Shown: positions 6,811 through 25,572 of the stretch, piece after piece | Layout: each line of letters opens with the position of its first letter | How positions within the stretch are numbered: position 1 is the stretch's first letter | Origin: Deltaproteobacteria bacterium | GTDB taxonomy: Bacteria; Myxococcota; JACRCW01 | Reading direction: 5' to 3' | Assembly: GCA_016218805.1 (NCBI GenBank) | Contig: JACRCW010000039.1 | Span: 1 to 64,000 of the forward strand | Length of the DNA: 64,000 nt | Translations under genes and position numbers: made by a program | Notes under the pieces: generated by a model | Told to the model about the DNA's origin: nothing | The model's database searches: none | Seen by the model: the letters and a program-made list of their open reading frames with translations, nothing else

Positions 6811-7779
6811 TCACGGGACCGCCAGCCCGTCCACTTCCATCCGCCCATCCGCCCAGGCGCTCACGCGCACCGTGGAGCCGCGCACGGAATCCGGCGGCCA
6901 CGGGGTCACCGCGGTGCACCGTGACGTCGTCGCGGTGATGCCCTCACCGGTGGCAAACAGCAGCGGCCCGGACTGCTCCAGCCGCTGCATCACCGTGGGG
7001 CTGGGATGGCAGTACGTGTTGTCCGTCCCCGCGGAGATCACCGCCGCGCGCGGGGTCCACGCTGCCAGCGCCGGCGTGGCGGTGCTGGTGAGCGACCCGT
7101 GGTGGTCCACCTTCAGCAGGTCCACCCGGCCCGTGTACCGCGCCACCGGCGTTTCCACGTCCGCCGTGCCTTCCCCGCCGCCCGTCAGGTCCCCGCCCAG
7201 GAACGCGCGGAAATCGCCGTGCTCAACGAGAAATGCCACGGAGCGGCTGTTCTCATCCGTGGTGGTCACGTGGGACCCGTCCGGCAGCGCCCCGTTCACC
7301 GCCACGCACGTCATGGTCACCCCGCCCAGCTGCAACTCCTGCCCCGGCTCCATGACGCTGACCCGCCCCCGGCTCACCTGGCGCCACTTCTCGCACGTCT
7401 GGCTGGTGCAGGTGTGGTCATCGCCGTAGTCCCACAGCGCAGCGCCCGGTGCGCCGTCATCCGCGGTGTTCGCCAGCCGGTCAGGCCCCAGCATGAAGTC
7501 CGCCAGCCCGGCCAGGTGGTCCGCGTCATAATGGGTGACCACAACGTGATCCACGCGTCCTTTGGACTCCTCCATGACCGCCGCCGCCACCGCGTCCGCC
7601 CGGCCAATGCCGCCGCCGTCAATCAGCACCGTGGTGCCATCCGGGCCGATCACCAGCGTGCAGTCTCCCTGCCCCACGTCCACCGCGATGATGCGCAACT
7701 CAGCGCCTGACCCGCCGCCGCCGGGCGGTGGCGGCTGGCAGGAGGCCGCGCAGAGGGCCAACCACACGCCACGCTTCAA
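6811..7779 (-). CDS. ComEC/Rec2-like metallo-beta-lactamase-fold hydrolase, lipoprotein
   Basis: DVGQGD, THYDADH, LGGD, LKVDHHGS and HP motifs; AASC lipobox. Confidence 0.88.
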   Translation of the reverse strand: MKRGVWLALCAASCQPPPPGGGGSGAELRIIAVDVGQGDCTLVIGPDGTTVLIDGGGIGRADAVAAAVMEESKGRVDHVVVTHYDADHLAGLADFMLGPDRLANTADDGAPGAALWDYGDDHTCTSQTCEKWRQVSRGRVSVMEPGQELQLGGVTMTCVAVNGALPDGSHVTTTDENSRSVAFLVEHGDFRAFLGGDLTGGGEGTADVETPVARYTGRVDLLKVDHHGSLTSTATPALAAWTPRAAVISAGTDNTYCHPSPTVMQRLEQSGPLLFATGEGITATTSRCTAVTPWPPDSVRGSTVRVSAWADGRMEVDGLAVP

Positions 7780-9410
7780 GGGAACTCCACGCGGAGGCTG
7801 TATTCCACGCCGGTCACCTGGGTGCTGGTCACCAGCGCGTAATACGTATCGCCCGGCAGCACGGCCACTTCTGCCCGCGTGGTGTCCAGCCCGCCCGCCG
7901 CACCGGCCGGGACCCCGTCCGCCAGGCGCAACCCGCCGGACGAGAACAGCGCCACCGAGACGACCTCACCCACCGCGCAGCTCGCGGTGGCCACCAGCGT
8001 GCCGGCGGCCGGCGCCTGGAACAGGAACAGGTCGTAATCGCCCTCGCACGTGCGCAGGCCGTTGCCCGGCAGCGCCCCAAACACGCCCGGCAGCGACACC
8101 ACCACGTCCGTGGCCCGGTTGTTGGGCTCCAGCAGGTCCACACCGCACGCGGGCGTGGGACCGCCCACGGGCAGACCGCTGCCACCATCCGCACCCCCAT
8201 CGGTCACGGACGCGTCGGCGGCGCCAGCGTCGTCAGCGGGCACCGCGCCGTCCGGTGGGCCCGCGTCAGACGGCACTGCGGCGTCCGTGCCACCCGCGTC
8301 CACGGGGGCTGCGTCCGGCGCGGAAGCGTCCCCTGGCGGGCCGCCGTCGGATGCGTCGGCAGGGCCACCGTCAGCGGGTGGCGGGTGGCCGGCGTCACGC
8401 GGGCAGAAGGGCCGCGCCGCGCACGCGGTGTCGGAGGTGTCCACGCCACAGGACCACGCGTAGTCCACGCACAGCGCCGGGAGCGCCGGGGACTGGCAGC
8501 ACGGATCGGTGAAGCAGGCGGGGGCCGTGCCGGCGTCGGTGCAGCCGCCGTCGGTGAAGCAGCCGCCGCCGGGCGCGGCACCGCCGGGGCAGACCCAGCC
8601 GCCGTCCAGGCAACCCGCGGACCCGGCCGGCGGCGTCCCCCAGCACGTGCCCGGCGGGCAGGCGGTGCGGGCCACGCCGGGCACGCAGGTCCAGCCGCCC
8701 GCCGCGCATCCGGCAACGCCCAGCACCATGGGGTCCCCGCACGCCGGGTGGCAGGACGGCGCCGTGCCCTGGCAGGCGGACGAACAACGCTCCTCGGCCA
8801 CGCCCTCCGCGCACTGCCAGCGCGCGGCAATGCACGCCGCCGCGAACAACTCACCCTGTTCGCACCAGGTTGCCAGGCACTGGGCCTCGCTCCCCGGGCA
8901 CGACGCCGCGTACACGCAGCCGGGCACCACGGGCACCCCACCGTCGGCCTCGCTGCAGGCTCCCGGCGTGAAGCAGCCCGCGTCACCGGCGCTGCCGTAT
9001 TCACAGCTCCAGGTTCCTCCCGTGCACACCTGGCCCGGTGCGGGCGGGCCCCAGCATGTCTCCGTGGGACAATCCTCCACCAGGACGCCATCCGGGCACT
9101 GCCAGCGCCCGGATGCGCACGCCGGCACCGCCGTGGGCGCGGGCGCATAGTCCCCGCACGCCAGGTGGCAGGTGGGCTGCGGCGGTGCGCACGTGCCGCC
9201 GTTGGCGGACGCGTCCAACACCGTGCACTCGGGGCTGCCCGGCAGCAGGCAGCGCCCGCACGCGCAGCGCAACCCGTCCGCACACTCCCAGGACCGCGCG
9301 CAGCCGGCGCCCTCCGGGGCACCGCGCGCCGCCACCAGCGCGTCCCACGGCAGGCACCCCGCCAGCCCGAGCAGCACCAGGGCGCCCCGCAACGGAACCA
9401 ACACGCGCAC
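7776..9410 (-). CDS. Cys-rich repeat lipoprotein with DAG linker and C-terminal PPC-like domain
   Basis: LAGC lipobox, repeated C-x4-W-x-C units, and D.LEPNN...C.GD.D.F.F near the C-terminus. Stop overlaps the start of the MBL gene. Confidence 0.7.
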   Translation of the reverse strand: MRVLVPLRGALVLLGLAGCLPWDALVAARGAPEGAGCARSWECADGLRCACGRCLLPGSPECTVLDASANGGTCAPPQPTCHLACGDYAPAPTAVPACASGRWQCPDGVLVEDCPTETCWGPPAPGQVCTGGTWSCEYGSAGDAGCFTPGACSEADGGVPVVPGCVYAASCPGSEAQCLATWCEQGELFAAACIAARWQCAEGVAEERCSSACQGTAPSCHPACGDPMVLGVAGCAAGGWTCVPGVARTACPPGTCWGTPPAGSAGCLDGGWVCPGGAAPGGGCFTDGGCTDAGTAPACFTDPCCQSPALPALCVDYAWSCGVDTSDTACAARPFCPRDAGHPPPADGGPADASDGGPPGDASAPDAAPVDAGGTDAAVPSDAGPPDGAVPADDAGAADASVTDGGADGGSGLPVGGPTPACGVDLLEPNNRATDVVVSLPGVFGALPGNGLRTCEGDYDLFLFQAPAAGTLVATASCAVGEVVSVALFSSGGLRLADGVPAGAAGGLDTTRAEVAVLPGDTYYALVTSTQVTGVEYSLRVEFP

Positions 9411-9475
9411 GCAATGGGTTTTCACGACGGGGAAGTGTGTAGCACGCCCCGTGGGAGCGGCGTAGGTTGCCGCCC

Positions 9476-10645: not shown

Positions 10646-11313
10646 GCACACGGCCGGCGTGCGGGCGCGGTGGGCACACGCCCCGCCACGGCTTCCCCCC
10701 GTGTCACGCGGAACCAGGACCATGTCCCAGCGACCCGGCGTGGCCCGCCCACCGGGCCGGAGATCCACCCCCAGTGACCCGGGCATTGCCCCCCACCAGT
10801 CCGGAGGTGCCCCCAACCAACCTGGACGGCTTTCCCAGGTCAGGGGATGAACGTCCCCATGACACCTTGGGACGTTCCTATGTCGTGCGGTGTCGTTCCC
10901 CATGACACCCCTTGGCTGTCCCAGTGGCGGCACGGCCCTTCCCTGTTGTCAGGCCAGGCCCGCTCTGGGGCTGCGGCACTCGCGCGCACGACCCGGTTTC
11001 CCGATTTGACCCGGCGCGCGCTCCGTGCCGCCAGAACGCCGGTGGCCCCGGCAAACGGCATGAGCCCGAGACCGCTTTGCGGGAGTCGGTGCGGGAGCAT
11101 TCTGCCCATTCCTCCCGGAGGTGGAGGAAGCAACGGGGAGGAAGCTGCCGGCGTTGCGCCGTCAACGGCGTCGCGTGCGCCTGAGGCGCAGCAAGCTGTC
11201 TGGCGCACCCATTCCCCGCGTCGGCGGGCGCTTTCGCCAGGCGCGCCTCGAGGGCCTGTGCTCGCCAACTCGCGAAGTCTTGATCAACCCGCGATGGACC
11301 CTTGACTACAACC

Positions 11314-11330
11314 TACTACACGGCGTAGGA
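11314..11330. promoter_or_regulatory. Putative BlaI-family operator TACTAC-N5-GTAGGA
   Basis: Imperfect palindrome just upstream of the repressor ATG (11338), with TTGACT (-35-like) at 11302-11307. Confidence 0.7.
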
Positions 11331-11337
11331 GTAGAGC

Positions 11338-11718
11338 ATGTCCGCGACACGGCATGCGCTCGGTGAACTCGAGCACGCCATCATGAATGTCCTTTGGGCG
11401 CGCGCGCCTCTGTCGGTGCGTGAGGTTCTCGCCCGGCTGCGTCGTCGCCCCCCGCCCGCGTACACCACCGTGATGACCGTGCTGGACCGCCTCCACGCCA
11501 AGGGCCTTGTTGAGCGCGTGAAGGACGGCAAGGCGTTCCTGTACGGTCCCACGGTCACGTGCGACGAGTGGACCGCGGAAAACGCGCTTCGCGCGCTGGG
11601 CAGGGACCCCACCACGGGCGTCTTGGTCGCATTCCTGGACTCCGCCCAGCGGGCCGACTCGGACCTGATGGACCGCTTGGAGCGGCTGATCGCGGCACGG
11701 CGGGAGCGTGGCACTTGA
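11338..11718 (+). CDS. BlaI/MecI/CopY family transcriptional repressor
   Basis: LGELEHAIMNVLW, AYTTVMTVLDRLHAKGLVERVKDGKAFLY. Confidence 0.93.
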   Translation: MSATRHALGELEHAIMNVLWARAPLSVREVLARLRRRPPPAYTTVMTVLDRLHAKGLVERVKDGKAFLYGPTVTCDEWTAENALRALGRDPTTGVLVAFLDSAQRADSDLMDRLERLIAARRERGT

Positions 11719-12689
11719 GCGCCCTCCTGCTCGGTCCGCCTCTCTTCCTGATCTTCGTCGTCTCCGCCATGGCGGCCTCCGCGTGCGTGTCCTTGTTCCG
11801 CCGGTGGAGCGCACGGCAATCCGCGCTGCTCGCGTTCCTTGCAACCGCGGGACCCCTGTTGGCGGCCCTGCTGACATTCGCCGCCTTCCTGGGTCCGCTG
11901 TTTGAAGGCCACTGCCACTGCGCGGAACATGGTCTGCATCATCCGCACCTTTGCCCACTGCACCCGTTGCACGCCGCAGGCTTGGTTGCGCCAAGCGCCT
12001 ACCTTCTGGCCGCATGGGCCCTGTTCGTCGCGCCAGAGGTCATGGTTCTGGCGCACAGCGTGCTGCGCGCGGCAAGGTGGCGCCGCGCTGTCCTGCGATT
12101 GCCCGCGCAGGTCATCAGGGGCTGCCAGGTGCGCCTCTCCCCCTGCGGCGGCCTCGGCGCGGTGACGGTCGGCCTGTTGCGCCCGGTAATCGTCGTCGAC
12201 CCGCGCGCCTGGGAGGCCCTGGAGCCGGCGGAACGGGAAGCCGTCGTCCTGCACGAAGCTGCCCATGCCCGAAGGCGGGACGGGTCCGTCCTCTTCATCC
12301 TCCGCCTGTGGTCGGCGCTGGTCCCGGTGCCCTCGCTCCGGCGCACCGTGGACGCATGGCGGGAGGCCGCGGAACACGCCTGTGACCGGGCCGCCGCGGC
12401 GACGCTGGGGAGCCCATGCACCGTCGCTGCCGCGCTCGTGGCGGTGGAGGGCTCGCGCCACGGCTGCCGCGGCGCCCCGCCGCTCGCCGTGCTCCCGGTG
12501 GCGGGTGGTGCCGGCCTGGAGGACCGCGTCCAATCACTGCTGGCCGTGGAGCACGGGACAACCCGGGCCGCGGTGCCCGCCCTCGCACCGGTCGTCGCCG
12601 TTGCGCTTGCCGCCGCGGCCATTGCCCTGACCGTCCCGACCCACCACCTCGTCGAAACCACGCTCGGTTTCCTTCTCTCGTCCCATTGA
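11715..12689 (+). CDS. BlaR1/M56-like membrane metallopeptidase with His/Cys loop
   Basis: TTG start overlaps the repressor stop. Motifs GLLRPVIVV, HEAAHARRRD and EHACD; loop GHCHCAEHGLHHPHLCPLHPLH. Confidence 0.85.
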   Translation: MSALLLGPPLFLIFVVSAMAASACVSLFRRWSARQSALLAFLATAGPLLAALLTFAAFLGPLFEGHCHCAEHGLHHPHLCPLHPLHAAGLVAPSAYLLAAWALFVAPEVMVLAHSVLRAARWRRAVLRLPAQVIRGCQVRLSPCGGLGAVTVGLLRPVIVVDPRAWEALEPAEREAVVLHEAAHARRRDGSVLFILRLWSALVPVPSLRRTVDAWREAAEHACDRAAAATLGSPCTVAAALVAVEGSRHGCRGAPPLAVLPVAGGAGLEDRVQSLLAVEHGTTRAAVPALAPVVAVALAAAAIALTVPTHHLVETTLGFLLSSH

Positions 12690-12721
12690 TGACGCATGCG
12701 CCCGCTCGGAGATGCACTCCC

Positions 12722-14272
12722 ATGGCCCGAACTACTACGCCGAGTAGTATCGCAATGTCGTTCCTGGTCCTCACCCTGGCCGCGTGCCCGCGGCCGGGCG
12801 GCCCCGAACCGCACGGACATGGCCACGAGGAGTCCGCCGAACCCGAGGCCCCGCCGGTGGCCATCACGCGTTGGACCGGGCGACACGAACTGTTCGTCGA
12901 GTTTCCCTCGCCCGTGGCCGCCCAACCCATGCGCTTCCACGCCCACGTGACGAGGCTGGAGGGCACGCAGGCCGCCACGCGGGGCGTCTTCCGGGTGCTG
13001 TTCCGGCGGGGCGACACCGTCGTCGCGCAGGCCAGCGCGGCAGGCGTGACCCGCCCGGGTGTCTTCAAGCCGGAAACCACGGCGCCCGCTGCCGGGGACT
13101 ACCAGGTCGCCATGGTCTACGACGTCGAGGGCGTCACGGACACGTTCGAATGCGGGACCGTCACCGTGCACGCCACGCCGCCCGGGCCGAAGGAGGAGGC
13201 GCCGGGTGGCGCTGCCATCACGTTTCTCAAGGAGACCCAGTGGCGCATCCCGTTTGCCACGGCCGTTGCTGAGGAGAGGCCGCTCGCCGTGGAGCGCGAG
13301 TTCGCCGCTGTCGTCGACGCGGCGGGTTCCTCTCAACTCACGATCAATGCGCCCGTGGCCGGGCGCGTCCTCTTCCCGTCGTCGGGTTCGCTGGTCGTGG
13401 GAACCCGGGTGTCGGCGGGAGCGACCCTTGCCACGCTTGTGCCGTTGCTGTTCGGTGATGACCTGGCTCGGCTGCAGGCGTCTATCGCCGAATTGCGCGT
13501 GACCCAGGCGCAGCAGGAACGGGAAGTGAAACGCCTGGGGGACCTGGTGCAGCAAGGCCTCCGCACCAACCAGGACGTTGTGGAAGCGGCGAACCACCTG
13601 GAGACCACGCAGGTCCGCCTGCGAACGGCGGAGGAGCGGCTGACGCGCGTCCTGGCCACGGGCCAGCGGGACGGGGTTGCCGTGCGGAGCCCGCTGGACG
13701 CCCTGGTGTCGCAGGTCCACGTCGGGAACGGAGACACCGTCCAGGCGGGAATGCCCATCCTGCGCGTCGCGGACGTCCAGCGCCTGTGGCTGACCATGAG
13801 GTCCATCGCGCGCCCTCTCGCGGAAACGGCGGACGCGCTCCCGGTGGCGGTGCGTTTCGCGAACGGTTCCCTCGTCGACCTTGCGGCCTACGCGCCGCGG
13901 CTCCTCTCCGTCCACCCGGTCACGGACCCGGAGAGCCGCATCGCCACGTGGACCGTCGAGTTGGCGCGCGGCTCGACGTCCCCGCTCCTTGCGCTCGGCT
14001 CCTCCGTGGTGGTGGTCATGCGGATGGACCAACCCGCCAACGTCGTCGCAGTCCCGCGGACCGCGGTGGTGGAGTTGAACACGCGCCCGTGGGTGTTCGT
14101 GCAGGTGGAAGGCGAGACGTTCGAGAAGCGCGGCGTGGTCACGGGTCGCAGCGACGGGACCTGGGTGCAGATCGTCTCCGGCGTCGCCGCGGGTGAACGT
14201 GTCGTGACGCGCGGCGGTTTTGACATCCACCTGTCGTCGCTCATGGGCACGATGGAAAGCCACCGGCACTGA
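12722..14272 (+). CDS. RND efflux periplasmic adaptor (CzcB/CusB-like), lipoprotein
   Basis: LAAC lipobox, His-rich HGHGHEE, TRWT..HELFVEF, coiled hairpin, C-terminal FEKRGV..G....GERVVTRG. Start is 12722 or 12755. Confidence 0.88.
   Translation: MARTTTPSSIAMSFLVLTLAACPRPGGPEPHGHGHEESAEPEAPPVAITRWTGRHELFVEFPSPVAAQPMRFHAHVTRLEGTQAATRGVFRVLFRRGDTVVAQASAAGVTRPGVFKPETTAPAAGDYQVAMVYDVEGVTDTFECGTVTVHATPPGPKEEAPGGAAITFLKETQWRIPFATAVAEERPLAVEREFAAVVDAAGSSQLTINAPVAGRVLFPSSGSLVVGTRVSAGATLATLVPLLFGDDLARLQASIAELRVTQAQQEREVKRLGDLVQQGLRTNQDVVEAANHLETTQVRLRTAEERLTRVLATGQRDGVAVRSPLDALVSQVHVGNGDTVQAGMPILRVADVQRLWLTMRSIARPLAETADALPVAVRFANGSLVDLAAYAPRLLSVHPVTDPESRIATWTVELARGSTSPLLALGSSVVVVMRMDQPANVVAVPRTAVVELNTRPWVFVQVEGETFEKRGVVTGRSDGTWVQIVSGVAAGERVVTRGGFDIHLSSLMGTMESHRH
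12733..12749. promoter_or_regulatory. Second putative BlaI-family operator TACTAC-N5-GTAGTA
   Basis: Perfect 6-bp arms at the 5' end of the efflux MFP gene; same core as 11314-11330. Confidence 0.6.
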
Positions 14273-14278
14273 GGCCCC

Positions 14279-17200
14279 ATGTTCGACGCCATCATCCGAC
14301 TCTCCCTGCGGCACACCGGTCTCGTCGTCGCCCTGGCGCTGGCGGTGCTGGGATTCGGCATCGCAGTGGCCTCCGAGATGCCTGTGGATGTGCTGCCTGA
14401 CCTCTCCGCGCCTTCCGTCACCGTCATCACCGAGGCGCGCGGCATGGCGCCCGAGGAGGTGGAGCAACTCGTCACCATTCCCATCGAACAGGCCATCAAC
14501 GGAGCAACGGGCGTGCGCCGCCTGCGCTCGTCGTCGGCCGTGGGCATCTCGCTGGTCTGGGTCGAGTTCGACTGGGACGTGCCCGGGATGTACTCGCGCC
14601 AGGTCGTCGCCGAGAAGCTGGCCGTGGCGCGCTCGTCGCTTCCCGCCGGCATCGAGCCGGTGATGGCACCCATGTCATCCATCATGGGCGAGATCATGTT
14701 CGTCGGCCTGAAGGGTAGCGCCAGCATCGACGCCACCGCGGTGCGCGAAACCGCCGAGTGGCTCGTGCGGCGCCGGCTGCTCGGCGTGCCGGGCGTGGCG
14801 CAGGTGGTGCCCATTGGCGGCGCGATCAAGCAGGTCCACGTGGTGCTTGATCCCGATCGACTCACGCAGCTGGGCATGGACGCCGCATCAATCCAGGACG
14901 CGCTGAACGGCGCCTTTGAGAACACACCCGGCGGGTTCATTGTCGCCAGCGACCAGGAATACCTCGTGCGCGGCATCGGCCGGGTCACCTCGGTGGAGGC
15001 GGTCGGCCGCGTGGTCGTGGGCCGGCATCATGGCGTACCGGTCCTGCTGCGCGATGTGGCGGACGTGCGCGTGGGCGAGGCAATTCGGCGTGGCGACGCA
15101 TCCGTCGAGGGCACACCGGCCGTCACGCTGAAGATCCAGAAGCAGCCGCAGGCCAACACGCTCGAGCTCACGCGGCGCATCGACGTGGTGCTCGACGACC
15201 TGCAGGAGTCCCTGCCGAAGGGGATGACACTGTACCGCAAGGGTTTCCGCCAGGCGGACTTCATCGACCTGGCCATCAAGAACGTGATGGACGTGCTGCG
15301 GGACGGGTCCATCCTGGTCACGCTGGTGCTCATCCTGTTCCTGCTCAACTGGCGGCCCACGCTGATTTCCCTGGCCGCCCTCCCGTTGTCGCTGCTTGTC
15401 GGCATCCTGGTCCTGCGCTGGCTGGGCGCGTCCATGAACACCATGACGCTCGGCGGGTTCGCCATCGCCATCGGCGAACTGGTGGACGACGCCATCATCG
15501 GCGTGGAGAACGTGCACCGGCGGCTGCGCGACAACAGCCTCGTTCCCGAGAGCGCGCGCCGGCCCGTTTTCGACATCGTCTCCGAGGCGTCCCGCGAGGT
15601 CCGCGGGTCCATTGTGTTTGCGACCACGATCATCCTCATGGTCTTTGCGCCGTTGTTCTTTCTCAGCGGGCTGGAGGGACGCCTGCTCCGGCCGCTGGGC
15701 ACCGCGTACGTGGTCAGCATTGGCGCGTCACTGATTGTGGCGCTGACGGTCACCCCGGTGCTCTGCCTGCTCCTGCTGGGCGGCACACCGCACGCCGTAC
15801 GGGCTGACTGGGCCATGGTGCGGTGGATGAAGGCCGGGTACCGCCGGATCCTCCACGGCCTCGTACGCCACGGCGCGGTCATCGGCGTGCTGTCGTTGGC
15901 CGGTGCCATCACCGCCACCACCGCCATGTTCTCGTTTGGCCGGCGGTTCCTGCCTGAGTTCAACGAGGGCGCGCTGAACATTGCCGCGGCCACGGCGCCG
16001 GGGACGTCGCTGGCGACCTCGATTGAGATGGTTGGACGCCTGGAGTCCTTCCTCGTCGCTCATCCGGCCGTGGCCTCCGTGGTTCGCCAGACGGGCCGCG
16101 CTGAGCGTGACGAGCATGCGCAGGACGTCAACTTCTCCGAGCTCGAGGTGGGGCTGAACATTGAGGAGGGAGATCGGGAACGTGTCCTCGCGGACATCCG
16201 CGAGCAGGCGGCGCGGATTCCCGGGCTCGCTGTGGCGGTGGGCCAGCCCATCAGCCACCGCATCGAGCACCTGCTCAGCGGCGTGCGCGCCCCGCTGGTC
16301 CTGCGCATCTTTGGCGACGACCTGGACCAGCTGCGGGCCCTGGCGCGGCAGGCGGAGGCGGCCATGAAGCGCGTGCCCGGTCTCGTTGATGTCAACGTGG
16401 AGCAGCAGACGGAGATCCCCCAACTTGCCATCCGTCCGCGTGAGACAGAGCTGGCGGCGTTCGGGATGACGCCTGGCCAGCTTGCGCGCTTCACCGAAAT
16501 GGCCCTTGCTGGCCAGGTGGTGGGCACGTGGTGGGAACACCAGCGCTCGTACGACGTCATCCTGCGGATGCCGGACGCGTACCGTGCCAGCGCGGATCTC
16601 GTGGGCGCTACGCCAGTGCACCACATGGACGGGCGGGCGGTTCCCCTGTCAGCCGTGGCCACCATCGACAGGACGCTTGCGCCAAACCTTGTGAACCGGG
16701 AGAACGCGCAGCGGCGGATCGTGGTGTCAGCAAGCGTCACCGGTCGGGATGTGCGCGGTGCCGCGGAGGACGTGCTGCGCAGCGTGACCGCGCAGGTGAG
16801 GCTGCCGCCGCAGTACCACGTGGAGCTTGGTGGCGAGTTCGAGAGCGAGGCGCGGGCCAGCCGCACCATCCTGCTTCTCTCTTTGCTGGCGATCCTGGGG
16901 ATGGCCGTGCTTCTCGGCATCGCGTTCCGATCTGCGCGCGACGCAGCGCTCGTGATGGTGAACCTCCCGCTTGCTCTCATGGGCGGCGCGGCGGCCGTCG
17001 CCATGACCGGGAGCATCCTGAGCGTGGCCTCCCTCGTTGGGTTCATCACCCTGTTCGGGGTGGCCACGCGTAACGGGATCATGATGGTGACGCACTACCG
17101 TCACCTCGTGGTCCGCGAGCAGCGGACCCTCCGCGACGCCGTGCTGGACGGGAGCGTGGACCGGCTCGTCCCCATCCTGATGACTGCGCTCACTGCGGCG

Positions 17201-17350
17201 CTCGGGCTCGTTCCCATCGTGCTGGCCACCGGTGAACCCGGCAACGAGATCCAGGCACCCATGGCCGCGGTCATCCTCGGCGGCCTCGTCACTTCCACCG
17301 TGTTGAACCTGTTTGTCGTGCCGCCGCTGTTCACGCGGTTCGCGAGGTGA
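14279..17350 (+). CDS. CusA/CzcA family heavy-metal RND efflux permease
   Basis: 1023 aa; MPVDVLPDL, APEEVEQLVT.PIE, AIAIGELVDDAII, FLPEFNEG, RLVPILMTALTA. Confidence 0.95.
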   Translation: MFDAIIRLSLRHTGLVVALALAVLGFGIAVASEMPVDVLPDLSAPSVTVITEARGMAPEEVEQLVTIPIEQAINGATGVRRLRSSSAVGISLVWVEFDWDVPGMYSRQVVAEKLAVARSSLPAGIEPVMAPMSSIMGEIMFVGLKGSASIDATAVRETAEWLVRRRLLGVPGVAQVVPIGGAIKQVHVVLDPDRLTQLGMDAASIQDALNGAFENTPGGFIVASDQEYLVRGIGRVTSVEAVGRVVVGRHHGVPVLLRDVADVRVGEAIRRGDASVEGTPAVTLKIQKQPQANTLELTRRIDVVLDDLQESLPKGMTLYRKGFRQADFIDLAIKNVMDVLRDGSILVTLVLILFLLNWRPTLISLAALPLSLLVGILVLRWLGASMNTMTLGGFAIAIGELVDDAIIGVENVHRRLRDNSLVPESARRPVFDIVSEASREVRGSIVFATTIILMVFAPLFFLSGLEGRLLRPLGTAYVVSIGASLIVALTVTPVLCLLLLGGTPHAVRADWAMVRWMKAGYRRILHGLVRHGAVIGVLSLAGAITATTAMFSFGRRFLPEFNEGALNIAAATAPGTSLATSIEMVGRLESFLVAHPAVASVVRQTGRAERDEHAQDVNFSELEVGLNIEEGDRERVLADIREQAARIPGLAVAVGQPISHRIEHLLSGVRAPLVLRIFGDDLDQLRALARQAEAAMKRVPGLVDVNVEQQTEIPQLAIRPRETELAAFGMTPGQLARFTEMALAGQVVGTWWEHQRSYDVILRMPDAYRASADLVGATPVHHMDGRAVPLSAVATIDRTLAPNLVNRENAQRRIVVSASVTGRDVRGAAEDVLRSVTAQVRLPPQYHVELGGEFESEARASRTILLLSLLAILGMAVLLGIAFRSARDAALVMVNLPLALMGGAAAVAMTGSILSVASLVGFITLFGVATRNGIMMVTHYRHLVVREQRTLRDAVLDGSVDRLVPILMTALTAALGLVPIVLATGEPGNEIQAPMAAVILGGLVTSTVLNLFVVPPLFTRFAR

Positions 17351-18600
17351 CGTCAATGTGGCGCGTCGTTGCCGTCGTCCCGTTGGTGTCCACCGTGGCG
17401 CTCGCCGCGGGCCAGGAGGGCCGCGCAGGCCTGACGCTGGAGTCGGCCATGGCGCTGGCGCGCGCGCGGGCCCCGTCGGTGCTGGCGGCCGACACAGAGC
17501 TGCGCGCGGAGCAGGCCAGCCGCGTAGGGGCCACGCCGCTGTTCGCGCGCAACCCAAGCCTGGAGGGCGGCGCCGGCGGTATGCTGGTCCCGGCGGCCCG
17601 GCTGCGCGATTGGCGCGATACGACCGCGGGTCCCACCGCGTTTCTGGGCGTGGCGATACCCATCGAGATTGCAGCCCAGCGTTGGAGCAGGGTGGCCGCG
17701 GTCGACGCGCGCATCGCGGTGCGGCGGGCCAACCGCGACGACGCGGTACGGGAGGCGTTGTTCTCGGTGGGAGAGGAGTTCTTCCGGGTGCTGCACGCGC
17801 AACGCCGCGAGCAACTTGCGGAGGAGACGGTCGCCGTGGCGACGCGGTGGTGCGCGGCCATCCGCGCGCGCCAGGCAGCTGGGGACGCGTCCAGGCTGGA
17901 TGTCCGCATTGCCGACGCGGAGCTGGCGACGGCCGAGCAGGCTCTGCTGGCCCACCGCGGGGCGCACCACGTGGCGAAGGCCCGCCTGGCCGCGCTGCTT
18001 GGCGCGGGAACGGAGGCTGTGCAGGACGTGACCGGTGACCTCGTCCCGCCGACGCCGTTGCCGTCGTTGGAGGACGCGCTTGCCCACCTGGCGGAACGCG
18101 CGGACATCCGCGCGGTGCGCATGGGGCGGGGAGCCGCACTGCGGGAGGCCAACGTTGCCGCGGGCAACGCGTTCCCCAGCCCGACGCTGAAGAGCTACTA
18201 CCAGTACTGGAATCGCGAACACGCCCTGATGGCCACCGTGGAGGTGCCGCTTCCCATCTTCGACCGGGGGCAGGGCGAGGAGGCGCGTGCGCGCGCCCGC
18301 GCCAGCGGCCTCGCCGCCGAGCCTGACGCGCGGTTGGACAGGGCCCGCATGGAGGTGACGCAGGCATGGGAGTTGGCGCGCACGCTGGCGTCCCTGCGCG
18401 AGGTTTCCAGTTCCCGTGACGATGCGATGACGCTGCCCGCGGACCTCGAAGAACAGCTCAGGTCGCATCGCGTTGAGCTGGCCACGGTCCTGCTGGCCCA
18501 GCGGCAGGTCATGCAGCTCAGGGCGGAAGCGCTGGACCTGCAGCTGCTGGAAGCCATGGCCCGCTTGTGGCTGGACCATGCGTCCGGCGTGTTGAAGTAG
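17347..18600 (+). CDS. TolC/CzcC family outer-membrane efflux protein
   Basis: LTLESAMALA, AGDASRLDV, VPLPIFDRGQG; coupled to the permease stop. Confidence 0.85.
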   Translation: MTSMWRVVAVVPLVSTVALAAGQEGRAGLTLESAMALARARAPSVLAADTELRAEQASRVGATPLFARNPSLEGGAGGMLVPAARLRDWRDTTAGPTAFLGVAIPIEIAAQRWSRVAAVDARIAVRRANRDDAVREALFSVGEEFFRVLHAQRREQLAEETVAVATRWCAAIRARQAAGDASRLDVRIADAELATAEQALLAHRGAHHVAKARLAALLGAGTEAVQDVTGDLVPPTPLPSLEDALAHLAERADIRAVRMGRGAALREANVAAGNAFPSPTLKSYYQYWNREHALMATVEVPLPIFDRGQGEEARARARASGLAAEPDARLDRARMEVTQAWELARTLASLREVSSSRDDAMTLPADLEEQLRSHRVELATVLLAQRQVMQLRAEALDLQLLEAMARLWLDHASGVLK

Positions 18601-19540: not shown

Positions 19541-19743
19541 CGCCCCTCAGCCGCGCCCTTCACCGGTCTTGGCGGGTTCCACCACCTGGATGCGGGACAC
19601 GCGCAGCACGCGCTCCTGTGCCTGCGGGTTCTTGGGGAAGCGCACGCGCACCATGGGCGTGCCCGCGCGGTCAAACCGCTCCACCACGTCCTCCGCCACG
19701 GCCAGCCCCAGCTCCACCAGGCGCGCACGCTTCGCGCGCGGTG
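19541..19743 (-). repeat. Duplicated, internally deleted 3' end of the XPB-partner gene
   Basis: 19541-19687 matches 23447-23593 (one mismatch seen); 19688-19743 matches 23984-24047 with a shortened GC run. Confidence 0.9.
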
Positions 19744-19810
19744 CCAATTCGGCGTGATCCGCCGGGCAAGGCGTGGCGCAGGAGTCATCGCGTCTGGACG
19801 ACCCTCAACC

Positions 19811-19977: not shown

Positions 19978-22662
19978 TCACGGGCACGGCACCGTAGGCA
20001 CCACGCCACCTGCCGACGGATTGCCCACCGCGAGGTAGCCCCAGGTGCCAGGGCGTCCGCCCCGGCCGAAGCTGTCGGGCGCGTCGTTGGCGACCAGACG
20101 CGCCTCAATGGTATCGCCGGGAGCTGCGGTGACGACACCCCGCACCGCTTGGCCGGCGCTACCCTGGTCCAGCACGCGCAGCTTGGAGACGAGCCCGACC
20201 TCGACGCCCGCGCGGCACACCCGGATCGAAGCGGCGTTGGGCGAGTACCCGACGAAGTCGTGGTTGCCGGTAGCCACGAAGGAGCAGGACCTGCTGCCCG
20301 TACCAGGCTCGCCGCCCTTGACCAGACAGCCGGCAGTCCCCGTCGAGGCCGTCCCTTCGTCGGGAGGTAACGTGGCGCAGGGAAGGCCGTCGGATTGGCC
20401 GCAGCCGGAGGACGCGCTCGCCGGCGGCGCAGGCACCGCGGGCTGGGTCGGCACCAGCAGACGGGAGGCGCTGCCCGGCCTGTGGAGCAACTCCACCTTC
20501 ACCGATGGCAGCTCCGACGCGTATTGGTAGGAGCCGCCGGTGATGCGGTCGGAGAACGGCGGCGACGAGACCCGCACCACGAATTGGTGACCCGCGCGGA
20601 AGACATGGCCGAGCGGCCAGACGCCGATCTGCATCCGCACCGTGGCGCCCGAGGAAACCGGCAGCACCGCGCTCGCGGCATGTGGGTGGTGCGGCTGGAT
20701 GATCTCGCCAGCGAAGGCGCCCGTGGCGATGGTCTTGGAGAGCGCCAGGTCCAGCGCACGCTCCGTCCCCCGCAGCACCCCGCTCTGGACGTACTGGGCC
20801 GCTCCGTCGGGGAACTGGTCGACGATCTCGACGAACAGGTCGGCGTCGGCGCCGAGGATGTTCGCGTACAGATCCAGCACCAGCGGCCCGGCCACCACCG
20901 TGTCCGCTCCGACCGGAAAGGCGTAGCTCACCGAGGCGTGGGTCCCCGTCAGGCGAGTGAACGGCTCGCCACCGGTCTCCGTCGCGAAGACATCCGCCGC
21001 CTCGTCCGAAGCGGGTGGGGTCACGCTCAAGGCCTTGCCGGCGCGCAGGTAGAGCGCCTGCCAGACGGTGCCGGGGAGTGGGTAGTCTGCTGCCGCGGCC
21101 GAAGCCGCCGGGGGATTGGCGCCCGGCGCGCTCTCCAGGTAGAGGCGCACGCGTTTGCCGGCGTCCGTGATGTCACCCGGGCAGCCCTCGCCCGACTTCA
21201 GCATCCAGCAATCGAGCCACGCGTCACTGTCGGAGACCCCGGCCCTGCCGGCGTGCCTGCCGTTGGCCAGCACCAGCCGCTTCGGCGTCGAGGTTGGGAT
21301 GCGCTCGAAGAGCAGCGCGCCGGAAGGCCCGGTCTGCTCGTCCTGGTACATGTGCCTCAGGTGGATGGGGACCCGGATGTTGGGCGCGTACGTGGCGAGC
21401 GAGTGAGTCCGGAAGTATGGGTTGTCGTCGACGTCGGTCAGCACCTGCTCGAGCAAGGCGTACCCGACGGTGGGGGGACGGCCGGCGGTGTGGTCGCGGC
21501 AGGCGGGGTTTCCGGCGGCCAGTTCGTCGTTGCCGCGATAGGTCATCGCCAGCGCGCCGGAGGTCTTCCCGCCAATCCCCGCCAACCACCCCACCGGGAA
21601 GCCGGCGTTGGTGACGTGGCCCAGGTGGACGGCTCCACGGTAGAGGTCGTCGATGAGGCCTCCGACGGCGACCGCGTTCACGTGCGGCGGGTTCAACGCC
21701 GCGATCCGGAAGCCCATGTTGCCCCAGTAGGAAAAGCCGACGACGGCGACACGCTGGTTGGACCAGGGCTGGGCGACGACCCAGCTCTCAATGACGTCGT
21801 AGTGGTCCTGGATGTCGCGCACACTCCATAGGTCGTAGGTCCCGCCCGAGCAGCCGGTCCCGCGCGCGGAAACCTCCACCCTCACGTAGCTGTCGTCCTG
21901 GTCCCGCGGGAACCCCGGTGGCCAACCTCCGGGGTAGATGGAGTTGGCGTAGCCGGAGGTCTGGTACTTGGTGGGATAGCGGCGACCCACCTGATAGTCG
22001 TCCGGAAACAGGGCAATGACCGCGAGCTTCACGCCGTCGGTGACCTGGACGTAGGTGCGCTGCACGTTGAGGGTTCCATCGACCGGGTCGTCGTCGATGA
22101 TGCTTCCCTGGCCCACGGCGTCCGCGAACCCTGCGTTGCCCGACGGATTACAGAGGTCCAAGGTGAGGTACTCGCCGCCCGTCTCATCGACCTCGTCGGC
22201 AGCGACCTGCACCGTGACCGCCTGGCTGGTGACTCCAGCCGCGAAGGTCAACCTTCCGCTGACGGCGGTATAGTCCACCCCGGCCGTCGCTCCCGCGCCC
22301 CCGAGGCCCGCCGCGCCATCAACGCCGTCTGCCGTGGCGTAGTCCACCGTCAACGCGAACGGAGCAGCGGGGGCGAGAGTGACCGTGAAGGTCAGCGCGG
22401 TCAGTCCGCCGCCGCTGCCCTCCTTCACCCGGGGGTCGTCGATGCTGAAGAGGTACCCTGCGTCCCCCCCGGCGCCGCAGACCGCGCTCGCGTCCTGGCC
22501 GGGCGCTCCGGCATCGGCCGGCTGCCCCGCGTCGATCCCGGTTGCCGTGGAGGCGTCCCTGCCCGGCTCGCCGCTGGCGCCCGTGACCGGCGGAGAAGGA
22601 TTCCCACAGGCACCGAACACCAGAACCGCGAGCACGGCTATGAACCGCGCAAATGTCCCCAT
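19978..22662 (-). CDS. CocE/NonD (peptidase S15) hydrolase lipoprotein with Calx-beta domain
   Basis: FGAC lipobox; FTVTL..VTVDYATADG..AGVDY..LTFAAG (Calx-beta); RGTGCSGG, QPWSNQRV and GFSYWG nucleophile motif. Confidence 0.88.
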   Translation of the reverse strand: MGTFARFIAVLAVLVFGACGNPSPPVTGASGEPGRDASTATGIDAGQPADAGAPGQDASAVCGAGGDAGYLFSIDDPRVKEGSGGGLTALTFTVTLAPAAPFALTVDYATADGVDGAAGLGGAGATAGVDYTAVSGRLTFAAGVTSQAVTVQVAADEVDETGGEYLTLDLCNPSGNAGFADAVGQGSIIDDDPVDGTLNVQRTYVQVTDGVKLAVIALFPDDYQVGRRYPTKYQTSGYANSIYPGGWPPGFPRDQDDSYVRVEVSARGTGCSGGTYDLWSVRDIQDHYDVIESWVVAQPWSNQRVAVVGFSYWGNMGFRIAALNPPHVNAVAVGGLIDDLYRGAVHLGHVTNAGFPVGWLAGIGGKTSGALAMTYRGNDELAAGNPACRDHTAGRPPTVGYALLEQVLTDVDDNPYFRTHSLATYAPNIRVPIHLRHMYQDEQTGPSGALLFERIPTSTPKRLVLANGRHAGRAGVSDSDAWLDCWMLKSGEGCPGDITDAGKRVRLYLESAPGANPPAASAAAADYPLPGTVWQALYLRAGKALSVTPPASDEAADVFATETGGEPFTRLTGTHASVSYAFPVGADTVVAGPLVLDLYANILGADADLFVEIVDQFPDGAAQYVQSGVLRGTERALDLALSKTIATGAFAGEIIQPHHPHAASAVLPVSSGATVRMQIGVWPLGHVFRAGHQFVVRVSSPPFSDRITGGSYQYASELPSVKVELLHRPGSASRLLVPTQPAVPAPPASASSGCGQSDGLPCATLPPDEGTASTGTAGCLVKGGEPGTGSRSCSFVATGNHDFVGYSPNAASIRVCRAGVEVGLVSKLRVLDQGSAGQAVRGVVTAAPGDTIEARLVANDAPDSFGRGGRPGTWGYLAVGNPSAGGVVPTVPCP

Positions 22663-23452
22663 GACTGACCTCTCCCCGTCGATCGAGTGCTCGTACTCCC
22701 GTCGCTGCCACCCGCAGGGAGTCTGCGCGCGGGTCAGGGCCCCGGCAAGCCATGTCCTTCGCGAAGGGACGAGTTGTGCCGTGTCCTCGGCGAACCTTCG
22801 GCCTGTTCAAGACAACAGGTAGACCGGTCGTTGAGCCAGGGTCGACGCGCACAGGTCCCTGCCCTCCGGGCATCGTCACCGCGTCCGTTCGCGCGGGGCG
22901 CACGGCCCACAAGCCCGGCAAACCGGCCCCCTCCCGGGTTGACCCGCATCACGCGGGTGCGGGGTCACGACCCCCCTGGGGCGCTTTCCAGAGCGGAGGG
23001 GCGGGTCCGGGGCGGGTCCTGACCAGGTGCGTGGCTTCACCGGAAGCCCACTGGAGTATGAGGCCCGGGCGCGCCGTGCTCTGTGGCCTTCATCTGCACC
23101 AACTGAGGCATCCGCTCATACTGACGCCGGCATCCCCGGGAGGGCTCGGCTCCTGCCGAGCCCAGCGTCACGGGGCCAACCACGGAGGTCACAAAGAGGC
23201 CCATCATGGTCAGCCTTGGAGCGCCGGTCTGCCACCTCCACGTCGGCAGCCTCTACGAGCTGACGAAGCCGCGTGACTCCCAGGGTTTCCAGAGCATCTT
23301 CGGTGAGCGTGTTCACCGCGGCACTGTCGCCGGACCAACCCGGCGGCAGCAAGCAACCGCTACGACTATTTCGGTCCCCGCCGCCTCCTTGGCGGTGTGC
23401 CCGGTGACACCACCGTGGCACCCACCCGCACACCGGCCGGCGGGGGCGCCCC

Positions 23453-25567
23453 TCAGCCGCGCCCTTCACCGGTCTTGGCGGCTTCCACCACCTGGATGCG
23501 GGACACGCGCAGCACGCGCTCCTGTGCCTGCGGGTTCTTGGGGAAGCGCACGCGCACCATGGGCGTGCCCGCGCGGTCAAACCGCTCCACCACTTCCACC
23601 GTCATGGTCTCCGTGCCGCCGCCGGCTTCAGGCTGGTAGCGCAGGCGCACCGCTCGGCCTTCCGACTCCGCGCGCTCCAACGCTCCCGCCGCCGGCGTGG
23701 ACGCGCTCTGCTCCGGTGCCCGCCGTGCGCGCAGCGGCACCACCGCAGGCCCGGCGGAGGCGGTGGCCGCCATCCGCGCCATGGCCGCGTTTCCGGTGAG
23801 CGCGTGCAGCACCTGCGCGCCCGGCTGCGGCGGCGGGAGGGGCGGCGCCACGGACACCTCCGTCAGCGCCGCCAGCAGGGTGGCCTGCCGCTGGCCGGCC
23901 AGCCGGGTCCCCAGCGGGGCCTCGGCGCCGTCCAGGTGGTCCTCGTCGTCCGGCAGGCGCATGGGCGGCGCGTACATCAGCGTGTCCTCCGCCACGGCCA
24001 GCCCCAGCTCCACCAGGCGCGCGCGCGCGCGCGCTTCGCGCGCGGTGTCCACCAGGAACACCGTGGGCGTCAGTGCCTCACCCAACAGTGACGCCACCTC
24101 CGGGTCCTCCGCGGCGCGGCGCGCATCCGCTTCCTCCGCAAACGCAATGATGAGCCCCCGCCCAAACGCCGCGCGGCCCCGCGGCGCGCCGTAGTCCTGC
24201 AGCGTGCGCTGGACGTTGTCCGGCACCCCGCGTGACGCCAGCGCGTGCAGCACCGCCTCCATGCGGGCGGGGTGCACGCCGCGGGCTGCCCCGGCGCTGA
24301 CGGAGGTGGGCGTGACATGGAAGCGGCTCACCGTGTCCAGCACGCGCGGCTCGGCAAACAGCCCCAGGCACGCCAGCAGGTCCGGCGGTGCGCTCGGTCC
24401 GACGTGGACTTCGTGGTCCGCGCCCACGTGGCCGTCGGGGCGGTGGTCCGGCGGGAGCGGGTCACCGCCGCGCAGCGCGGCCAGCACCGCGGGGTGGAGC
24501 CGCAGCGCGGGCGCGCCATCCGGTGTGCGGCCGCGCTCAAACAGCGGCGCGTTCCCCAGCAGGTCCAGGTCCGCGCGTGCCCCCGCCTCGTTGCCGCGCG
24601 CGTCCACGGGGAACGGGTGGCCGCCCAGCACCTGCTCGGTGTGGTGCAGCGTCTTGATCGCGCGGCGCAGCGTCGTCTCGGGGACAAATCCGCCGCCCGG
24701 CTCGCGCGCCAGGCGCAGCACCGCGGCAAACGCGCGCGGCGTCACCGCCGTCACCAGCAGGCGGCGCCAGAACCCGCCGGTGCGGTCCGCCAGCAGCTCC
24801 GGCGCGTCATGCGCCACGGACAACCGCGCGCCCGTGGGACGGGCCAGCCCGGCGCGCACGGCCAGCGTGACAATGTGCGGGATGAGCGTGCGGTCCACCA
24901 CGTGGTGCAGCGCGTCCAGCACCCGCGCCTGGTCGCGCGAATGCAGCTCCGTCCCCACCGCCGCCGAGCGCAGCCGCGGCGCATGCGCGCCCACGTACGC
25001 CAGGAACAGCCCCAGCACGTGCGCGGGGCTCGTCTTGATGCGCATGCCCAGCGGCTCGCCCGTGCCCGGCGCGCCCCCGCGCCGCTCCAGCGCGTCCAGC
25101 CAGCCGGACGTTGCCGCGGCCAGGGCGGGGCGCACACCGGGGAGCACGCGCAGCCGCTCGCCGCGGCGGGAATCCACCGCCAGCACCACGCCCAGCTCGT
25201 GCAGGGACGCCACCGCGGCATCCGCCAGGCGGCGGTCGTCGTCCAGCAGCAGGGCCAGCTCAAACTGCAGGTGCTCCTTCTCCATGCCCGCCGGGTGCTG
25301 CGCCAGCACGGCCAGCGCCAGCGTCGTCGCACCCCGCTTGGGATCCGTGGCGCGCGCCACCAGGCCCGGGTCACGCAGCGCCGCCTCAATGGACGCCTTG
25401 GTGGCCCCCGGCACGCTCTGGCCCAGGCGGCGCAGGCGCTCGGCCAGCACCGGCAGGTCCCGCTCCCCCACCAGGGAAAGCAGCGGCTCGCGGTCCTGCG
25501 GCCATTCCACGTCGGTGCGGAACAGCGCCGCTTCCGGCGTGACCGCTTTGATGCGCGGACGGGTCAT
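23453..25567 (-). CDS. XPB-associated protein (Helicase_C_3-like domain, C-terminal WYL-like domain)
   Basis: FHVTPTSVSAGA..G...GVPDNVQRTLQDY; C-terminus ALERA..EGRAVRLRY...ERVLRVSRI; directly downstream of XPB. Confidence 0.75.
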   Translation of the reverse strand: MTRPRIKAVTPEAALFRTDVEWPQDREPLLSLVGERDLPVLAERLRRLGQSVPGATKASIEAALRDPGLVARATDPKRGATTLALAVLAQHPAGMEKEHLQFELALLLDDDRRLADAAVASLHELGVVLAVDSRRGERLRVLPGVRPALAAATSGWLDALERRGGAPGTGEPLGMRIKTSPAHVLGLFLAYVGAHAPRLRSAAVGTELHSRDQARVLDALHHVVDRTLIPHIVTLAVRAGLARPTGARLSVAHDAPELLADRTGGFWRRLLVTAVTPRAFAAVLRLAREPGGGFVPETTLRRAIKTLHHTEQVLGGHPFPVDARGNEAGARADLDLLGNAPLFERGRTPDGAPALRLHPAVLAALRGGDPLPPDHRPDGHVGADHEVHVGPSAPPDLLACLGLFAEPRVLDTVSRFHVTPTSVSAGAARGVHPARMEAVLHALASRGVPDNVQRTLQDYGAPRGRAAFGRGLIIAFAEEADARRAAEDPEVASLLGEALTPTVFLVDTAREARARARLVELGLAVAEDTLMYAPPMRLPDDEDHLDGAEAPLGTRLAGQRQATLLAALTEVSVAPPLPPPQPGAQVLHALTGNAAMARMAATASAGPAVVPLRARRAPEQSASTPAAGALERAESEGRAVRLRYQPEAGGGTETMTVEVVERFDRAGTPMVRVRFPKNPQAQERVLRVSRIQVVEAAKTGEGRG

Positions 25568-25572
25568 GCCGC

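Follow-up and report, generated by a model that had tools for sequence, protein, structure and literature searches.

What a BlaI-type repressor and its membrane protease respond to when the protease has no beta-lactam-binding domain, and which genes such a pair controls, is the question raised by a five-gene locus at positions 11338–18600 of the window (the whole stretch of 64,000 nucleotides analysed here, from contig JACRCW010000039.1 of the myxococcotal assembly GCA_016218805.1). According to the accessible part of PMC13492132, about 94% of M56/BlaR-like proteins are devoid of a beta-lactam domain, and their signals are mostly unidentified. In the window, the genes for a BlaI repressor and the M56 protease coupled to it are followed by those of a membrane fusion protein (MFP), a resistance-nodulation-division (RND) permease of the CusA/CzcA type and a TolC-like outer-membrane efflux protein (OEP). 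An earlier note on this DNA had described this order, and all parts, including the HEAAH and EHACD motifs of the protease, were found where it had placed them. The system probably represents a BlaR/BlaI-type switch, based on regulated proteolysis, that induces a heavy-metal RND pump. Since the class of ligand, the residues, the operators and the target can all be named for this subfamily, the question of the signal becomes directly testable. The features of the locus are as follows (A5 is an alignment of 150 relatives, described below).

11302–11307, plus strand: TTGACT hexamer directly before operator 1, a possible -35 element read from the sequence
11314–11330, no strand: operator 1, TACTAC-N5-GTAGGA, upstream of blaI, a palindrome with one mismatch
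11338–11718, plus strand: BlaI/MecI/CopY-family repressor, 126 amino acids (PF03965, 83.1 bits against 22.6)
11715–12689, plus strand: M56 (BlaR1-type) membrane zinc protease, 324 amino acids, four predicted membrane helices (PF05569)
11907–11972, plus strand: His/Cys loop, protease residues 65–86, joining helices 2 and 3, a candidate metal site with a predicted periplasmic position
12252–12266, plus strand: HEAAH zinc-protease motif, residues 180–184 (H180, E181, H184), in 150/150 rows of A5
12372–12386, plus strand: EHACD, gluzincin ExxxD third-ligand motif, residues 220–224 (E220, D224), in 150/150 rows of A5
12642–12656, plus strand: HHLVE, residues 310–314 (H310, H311, E314), after helix 4, candidate second half of the metal site
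12733–12749, no strand: operator 2, a perfect TACTAC-N5-GTAGTA between the protease and pump genes
12755–14272, plus strand: MFP with a His-rich N-terminus, likely start ATG 12755 (TIGR01730, 104.6 against 94.9)
14279–17350, plus strand: heavy-metal-efflux RND permease of an uncharacterised clade (TIGR00914 CusA/CzcA, 748 bits against 701)
17347–18600, plus strand: outer-membrane efflux protein, TolC/CzcC-like (PF02321, 94.7 bits)

The repressor and its operators

The repressor belongs to the BlaI/MecI/CopY family, and its gene is joined to that of the protease, whose TTG start at 11715 overlaps the blaI stop codon by four bases (TTGA); an overlap of -4 or -1 is found in 58 of 64 relatives. 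The two operator palindromes, absent from the earlier note, lie both before the repressor's own gene and before its target genes, the layout that characterizes BlaI-family regulators. Judged from their sequences, these operators link the repressor to the pump, and the position of operator 1 upstream of blaI would imply autoregulation. It is very probable that BlaI binds as a dimer to operators 1 and 2 and that it represses its own expression as well as that of the pump. A scan for sigma-70 promoters and terminators found no full promoter or terminator at the locus; in many relatives, TTGAC falls within the upstream operator.

The window operators fit the pattern TAC[GT]AC-N5-GT[AC]GTA, which we take to be the mycobacterial BlaI box. 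The genome carries two perfect copies of this pattern, and a slightly broadened form has four sites in the 6.43-Mb genome, all of them at two blaI/M56 loci, namely the one described here and a paralogue on contig C28. Allowing one mismatch at most, 32 of 68 family loci carry the assumed pattern just after the protease stop codon, compared with 1 of 55 low-scoring controls and 0 of 2157 background windows; the region before blaI has it in 17 of 64 family loci and in 3 of 48 controls. Most of the remaining family loci use a second palindrome, ACCGAT-N5-ATCGGT, which is also present on gammaproteobacterial plasmids. A broadened pattern occurs in 57/68 family loci, 6/55 controls and 38/1841 background windows, counts that give no independent test since the pattern was built from these very loci. 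The recognition helix of the window repressor is AYTTVMTVLDRL. Among the 63 loci listed, a recognition helix could be parsed and an operator class assigned for 49, and the classes of helix and operator agree in all 49: the 32 TAC operators always go with an AYTT helix, and the 17 CCG operators with a (N/S)TxQ helix, as is consistent with direct binding.

Linkage of the protease family to heavy-metal pumps

Within the window's phylum, a profile of the family matched at least 51 of 401 genomes. From 54 phylum matches, 40 were taken, chosen for genus spread before their neighbours were seen, and further loci were added; the linkage set consists of the loci scoring at least 95 bits with at least 4.5 kb downstream (n = 50). 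A co-directional RND gene lies downstream in 45 of these 50 loci, and 41 of the 42 full-length RNDs scanned pass TIGR00914. Among 40 M56/M48 controls from the same phylum, on the other hand, 36 are devoid of the loop and none of the 36 has an RND, MFP or OEP match, while the remaining four (two of which are one locus counted twice) hold a divergent His/Cys variant before a CzcA-type pump. Similarly, 23 of 201 Acidobacteriota genomes were matched, and the 19 loci examined, grouped by eye on their loop sequence, divide into nine with a His-rich loop, eight of which are followed by an RND gene (the ninth ends after an MFP match), and ten without the loop, none of which is. Loop carriers are thus tied to heavy-metal RND pumps, whereas loop-less Gram-negative controls are not, which bears out the co-occurrence check suggested in the earlier note. 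Matches are scarcer in Gammaproteobacteria (7 of 300 genomes) and Alphaproteobacteria (2 of 251); of these nine loci, three have an RND gene, one an OEP gene before the contig end, two end at once, and three have no pump. A first control set of loop-less M56 loci, mostly from Actinomycetota (1 of 46 with an RND gene), was set aside as confounded, since monoderms lack tripartite pumps, and Gram-negative controls were used instead.

The loci L200, L202 (identical to L201) and L205 show a divergent form of the sensor, with an HQ...ACxxDH...C loop and an LHxxxE end; it heads CzcCBA operons, has the operator and groups apart on the protease tree.

On that tree, a quick one of 77 proteases with several long branches and unsure deep nodes, the CzcA-type pump label changes seven times between two heavy-metal clades, at least three of the changes being forced by starred branches. 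CzcA-type pumps occur at L065 and L075 inside well-supported window-type protease clades. The type of pump has therefore been exchanged repeatedly, and the sensor keeps a heavy-metal pump despite the exchange.

The window permease passes the model of the CusA/CzcA heavy-metal-efflux (HME) family and is nearer to CusA (457 bits) and ZneA (423 bits) than to drug pumps (at most 282 bits) among the solved structures. It carries AIGELVDDAI at the place in the fourth transmembrane segment (TM4) where we take the DFG signature of CzcA to lie, and at the positions which presumably form the periplasmic Met triad of CusA it has Ala, Phe and His664; His613, His660 and His664 are conserved in 21 of 21 members of the window-type clade. 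DFG is present only in the swapped pumps. As the window permease has neither the signature nor the triad, the designation 'CzcBAC-type' used in the earlier note is accurate at the family level only. Among related MFPs, 38 of 44 have at least three His in their first 60 residues.

The candidate sensor site and the proposed switch

The protease passes the Peptidase M56 model narrowly (PF05569, 33.6 bits, cut-off 31), and its residue set is complete: H180, E181, H184, D189 (five residues after the second His), E220 and D224. A structure model (predicted local distance difference test, pLDDT, 89.3) and hydropathy give the M56 layout, with four membrane helices, a protease domain placed between the third and the fourth of them, and a BlaR1 fold. 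The best structural match is BlaR1 (8exs; Z 14.5, root-mean-square deviation 4.6 over 227 residues, 12% identity, via re-alignment), while Foldseek against the PDB gave no match at E 0.001 or better, its best being BlaR1 at E 0.018. A protein atlas search returned M48/M56 clusters only. Basic residues cluster at positions 31–40 and 111–140, marking these segments as cytoplasmic; together with the BlaR1 fold match and the position of extracellular loop 1 (EL1), this predicts a periplasmic loop, so that the topology check of the earlier note came out in its favour. The note was also right that no penicillin-binding domain follows, as the 145 residues between HEAAH and the C-terminus leave no room for one. 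No penicillin-binding Pfam match was found, the protein ends shortly after helix 4, and no beta-lactamase or penicillin-binding protein (PBP) target is linked, which sets it apart from canonical BlaR1/MecR1.

The loop between helices 2 and 3 (residues 65–86) reads GHCHCAEHGLHHPHLCPLHPLH and occupies the position of BlaR1 EL1 and of the PetP Met loop, and HHLVE sits where the sensor domain of BlaR1 would begin. Relatives came from a word search (15 proteins) and a profile search with 1096 representatives at E 1e-30 or better, from which the best 150 of 1096 were used. The loop pattern and the terminal HHxxE are each found in 149 of 160 relatives, figures biased towards loop carriers because these are the top matches of searches with a loop-bearing query. 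In A5, which holds 150 of the 160 (fragments, Cys-free variants and, to keep within a size limit, one more sequence were left out), H68, C69, H78, C80 and H83 are invariant (150/150), followed by E314 (149/150), H76 and H310 (both 148/150), H72 (146/150) and H311 (145/150). H310 and E314 remain invariant in alignment A6, where the variants of Shewanella and Pseudomonas are included. Of the relatives with a name, the one closest to the protease comes from an uncultured Myxococcota bacterium. Compared with the paralogue in the same genome, whose protease is 66% identical, all loop His and Cys are kept, several of them through synonymous changes. The conservation of the loop, for which the earlier note called, is not due to chance.

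The copies from Glaciecola, Shewanella and Pseudoalteromonas hold a Cys-free HWHH...WH loop, HHxxE is kept in them and their pump operon is the same. Against the family profile, the Shewanella protein gives an alignment probability of 99% (its single-sequence fold, at pLDDT 43.6, was not used). His-rich, Cys-free variants from Acidobacteriota are pump-linked as well. The His/Cys loop of the earlier note stands, therefore, as regards its His and HHxxE, but not as regards its Cys, which are not universal. Five further M56 relatives (P0010, P0011, P0091, P0119 and P0149) show a Cys-free HxxWHxW-type loop with an RHxxE end.

The loop and HHxxE are both predicted to face the periplasm, and by inference they could form one site. 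The signal is likely to be a periplasmic transition-metal ion, bound by the His of the helix 2–3 loop and by the C-terminal HHxxE, which would replace the beta-lactam domain, and the loop Cys pair may act as a structural disulphide or as extra ligands. Intact motifs and the analogy with BlaR1 and PetP make it highly probable that the M56 protein works as a zinc protease, active and facing the cytoplasm, and that its cut in BlaI falls near Ala98–Phe99, a pair found at the expected cleavage position and conserved as AF among relatives. Under the proposed mechanism, BlaI would sit on both operators as long as little metal is present. Binding of periplasmic metal to the His loop and HHxxE would open the protease domain, which would then cut BlaI near Ala98–Phe99, comparable to Asn101–Phe102 of Staphylococcus aureus BlaI, and the pump and regulator genes would be expressed.

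Regarding the identity of the metal, hints of nickel or cobalt come from the genes near the family loci and from the pump. DmeF Co/Ni transporters pass NF033827 at two loci (L036 and L057), with three loci found by tblastn, and HupE/UreJ genes occur at four family loci. An EamA protein with a His tail is encoded at 11 of 67 family loci and at 0 of 97 controls, and none of the NCBIfam models names it; it is a candidate Ni/Co exporter, with a possible likeness to CnrT. Examples with a very His-rich C-terminal tail are L040:2427–3491, L045:5087–6124 and L078:15982–17049. The His in place of the CusA Met site is a further hint of this kind. Multicopper oxidase and chromate genes also adjoin family loci, once or twice. 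The sensed metal would be a divalent, His-liganded ion, with Ni/Co ranking before Zn/Cd and Cu(I) least likely, although the case for Ni/Co, weakly inferred from these hints, falls slightly short of even.

Several observations weigh against a metal-responsive switch for a heavy-metal pump. Many of the genomes are kin, so that the linkage counts overstate their independence, and the protease tree is of the quick kind described above. Within the family, pump-less loci include L001 (the genome's own paralogue), L085 (flanked by transposases), L086, L087 and the loop-less actinobacterial L090, as well as L072, which has 4.4 kb downstream, and L274, L275 and L299; conversely, the low-scoring L100 also has a pump, together with CopC/CopD. 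Of the 36 same-phylum controls, five resemble M48/HtpX and six have less than 4.5 kb downstream. The window-type pumps score 715–880 against the TIGR00914 cut-off of 701, a modest pass, one truncated copy reaches 671, and their clade has no member with a verified substrate. Moreover, the predicted contact between the loop and HHxxE derives from topology and not from model coordinates, and the agreement between recognition helix and operator follows two clades, so that it does not amount to proof of direct binding.

Some of these points lend themselves to other explanations. The His site could hold a structural or cofactor metal, the true signal being a different ligand, for example a metal chelate or an organic pump substrate, as might be expected of an uncharacterised RND clade scoring near the cut-off of its model and of members that have no pump or lie beside TonB receptors (L086 and L087). 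The same sensor is, however, repeatedly paired with canonical CzcA-type pumps (930–1617 bits) and with DmeF and HupE/UreJ, which makes this an improbable reading. Marginally less probable still is a loop that senses periplasmic redox or envelope stress through a disulphide switch of its Cys pair, with metals acting indirectly. C69 and C80 are indeed present in 150/150 rows of A5, and the paralogue L001 adjoins rhodanese, DsrE and oxidoreductase genes, but the Shewanella, Glaciecola and Pseudoalteromonas members have the His, HHxxE and pump operon and no loop Cys, and the Cys-free Acidobacteriota variants are pump-linked too.

Two more alternatives change the logic of the switch, and both are very improbable. 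A repressor that senses the metal directly, as CopY does, with the protease only turning it over, would agree with CopY/TcrY being its best NCBIfam match. The score in that model (TIGR02698) is nevertheless 44.8, below the cut-off of 121.95, and the window BlaI holds a single Cys (C75) and has no C-terminal CopY Cys motif, which argues against direct sensing; the related repressors, compared over their C-terminal 62 residues, show no such motif either, and the conserved His and Cys lie on the protease instead. Copper does not affect DNA binding by PetR, the repressor of a related cyanobacterial pair, either, according to the accessible part of bioRxiv 10.1101/2020.07.31.226407. That PetR is also an activator, at petJ, would fit an inverted arrangement, in which metal inactivates the protease or BlaI acts as an activator of the pump and the operon answers metal shortage. 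Against it, the targets are exporters, and the operators occupy repressor positions: the end of operator 2 is 5 nt from the MFP start, and upstream operators lie over TTGAC or behind it.

Related systems, variants and neighbouring genes

Heavy-metal RND systems are usually under the control of two-component, extracytoplasmic function (ECF) or MerR-type regulators. The window operon resembles CusCFBA, CzcCBA and ZneCAB in its HME-family permease, His-rich MFP and outer-membrane factor, and differs from them in being controlled by a protease–repressor pair and in a permease with neither the CusA Met triad nor the CzcA DFG.

The best comparison for the regulator is PetR/PetP (Slr0240/Slr0241) from Synechocystis sp. 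PCC 6803, described in the accessible part of bioRxiv 10.1101/2020.07.31.226407, where PetP degrades the BlaI-family PetR only with copper; a commentary on PetRP (PMC7896320), in its accessible part, adds no efflux link. In both systems, a BlaI-family gene overlaps that of a four-helix M48/M56 protease devoid of a beta-lactam domain, the proposed metal ligands lie in the loop between TM2 and TM3, a Phe is conserved at the cleavage site, and the palindrome has a 5-nt spacer. However, the copper ligands proposed for PetP are two Met in a 14-residue loop, whereas the window loop is rich in His and Cys, has no Met and is complemented by the C-terminal HHxxE. The PetR box is GAC-N5-GTC, against TACTAC-N5-GTAGTA or ACCGAT-N5-ATCGGT in the window family. 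The PetR regulon consists of petE, petJ, slr0601 and slr0602, with copBAC and nrsBAC still copper-inducible in petR and petP mutants, while the target here is a metal efflux pump and the window box, TACTAC-N5-GTAG(T/G)A, has its four genome sites at blaI/M56 genes.

With S. aureus BlaR1/BlaI (and MecR1/MecI), as presented in the accessible part of PMC9834060, the window pair shares the HEXXH and EXXXD gluzincin motifs, a conserved Arg, four helices with both termini outside and an extracellular helix 2–3 loop, EL1, which is a signalling loop in BlaR1; the BlaI cut at Asn101–Phe102 comes from the same source. A coil lies at the position of the BlaR1 autocleavage loop, with Phe in 94 of 150 relatives and Val262 in the window protein. 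Contrary to BlaR1, neither a penicillin-binding domain at the C-terminus nor a beta-lactamase or PBP target is found. By analogy, the window system appears to work like PetP/PetR and BlaR1/BlaI, and it is a member of neither, given its different sensor site and target. CenIR from Clostridioides difficile, a BlaIR pair devoid of the beta-lactam domain (accessible part of PMC13492132), and mycobacterial Rv1846c/Rv1845c form the same two-gene module, although their targets are envelope or energy genes and not a pump; the loop-less actinobacterial M56 loci have neither the His loop nor a pump.

A copper-activated BlaR/BlaI pair (PetP/PetR, so far the only case in which such a mechanism is proven) and the prevalence of M56 proteins with no beta-lactam domain are therefore already known, and the novelty claimed in the earlier note was overstated in this respect, only about 6% of M56 proteins carrying the transpeptidase (beta-lactam) domain in the accessible part of PMC13492132. 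The sensor site and the efflux target are new, as are the operators before blaI and the pump, the pump swaps, the Ni/Co-type accessory genes and the Cys-free gammaproteobacterial variant. A literature search, with most subscription papers outside its reach, returned no BlaI/M56 pair described as a regulator of a heavy-metal RND pump. In their accessible parts, PMC7010606, PMC4320627, PMC10872679, PMC10393844, PMC12565901 and PMC7239810 do not describe the arrangement, blaI and blaR feature in PMC7239810 solely as beta-lactam genes, and PMC12565901 does not confirm the BlaI box assumed above. CopY and BlaR homologues in Alteromonas are noted with no assigned role in the accessible parts of PMC8478169 and PMC10141476. 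The name of Myxococcus xanthus is absent from the six protein clusters found.

Mobile copies of the system exist. Four of the nine plasmid matches were examined (Glaciecola, Shewanella, Pseudoalteromonas and Pseudomonas aeruginosa), and all have the order blaI-M56-TolC-MFP-CusA/CzcA; in the P. aeruginosa element a relaxase gene precedes blaI-M56-TolC-MFP-CzcA, with a variant of the His/Cys loop and both operators. PvmS/PvmR from P. aeruginosa PA14 (PA14_31050/31060) is likewise an island-borne BlaI/M56 pair with no sensor domain, and in the accessible part of bioRxiv 10.64898/2026.08.03.742534, whose authors deleted the pair, it is described as a regulator of virulence and metabolism with no identified signal; neither 'czc' nor 'efflux' appears anywhere in the main text. 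PMC5542712 lists PA14_31030 as a putative cation efflux protein, and the genes traG and trbE carry the tags PA14_30960 and PA14_30910 (PMC7059009). PvmS/PvmR in all likelihood belongs to the window family, an assignment based on gene order, as the 15 entries listed for a cluster of 89 members do not include the PA14 accession, WP_016254216.1.

More tentatively, and with rather less confidence than for Ni/Co itself, the family may be a widespread one of periplasmic receptors for Ni/Co (or Zn), each a single protein whose EL1 His and HHxxE clamp one ion and switch on the cytoplasmic protease, HHxxE possibly being contributed by the other subunit of a domain-swapped dimer like that of BlaR1. They would add a further route of RND control beside two-component, ECF and MerR regulators, with a range that takes in myxobacteria, acidobacteria and the mobile elements of Shewanella and P. 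aeruginosa, and PvmSR would be a metal sensor for its adjoining pump, a different reading from that of the preprint. If true, this would be an undescribed regulator of heavy-metal efflux, present in the window's phylum in at least 51 of 401 sampled genomes and on mobile elements. Since PetP has no more than a proposed copper site, a counterpart built on His would reveal metal switching of a BlaR-type protease and the basis of its selectivity, and a two-gene sensor of such size could serve as a whole-cell metal biosensor.

Other members depart from the common arrangement. Two from Pseudomonadota (L086, 4043–7723, and L087, 4633–8280) are divergent to a gene for a TonB-dependent receptor, with no pump, possibly an uptake-control variant. 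A blaI/M56 pair from Gemmatimonadota (L100, 8406–18270), with a His-containing loop and a His/Cys tail, is followed by CopC/CopD and an RND operon, and is possibly a copper version of the switch. The paralogue in the window's own genome (G000:C28:104276–106173; L001, from 12302–13659 on) has a BlaI 86% identical to that of the window and both operators intact, with only a frameshifted MFP fragment downstream and no pump; this pair may cross-regulate the window operon. A CzcCBA-like operon with no operator lies 4–10 kb from the paralogue on the opposite strand, beyond ArsR-rhodanese, DsrE and oxidoreductase genes.

Within the window, the pump genes at 12755–18600 follow the order MFP-RND-OEP, against OEP-MFP-RND in most relatives, and in the nearest relative (L032) the matching OEP gene lies upstream on the opposite strand. 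A search of public sequencing runs gave no RNA data set; its four DNA matches are groundwater metagenomes of one study. On the minus strand, positions 7776–9440 encode a Cys-rich, repeat-containing predicted lipoprotein with no Pfam match, adjoined by a gene of the metallo-beta-lactamase fold (6811–7779). Finally, a short chimeric remnant at 19541–19750 duplicates the 3' part of a helicase-associated gene (23453–25576), in pieces of 161 nt (97%) and 43 nt (98%) that correspond to 23447–23607 and 23984–24054. The remnant lies on the far side of an S15-peptidase/Calx-beta gene (19978–22662) from its source gene, and the duplicated pieces around 19978–22662 suggest an insertion or a local rearrangement.

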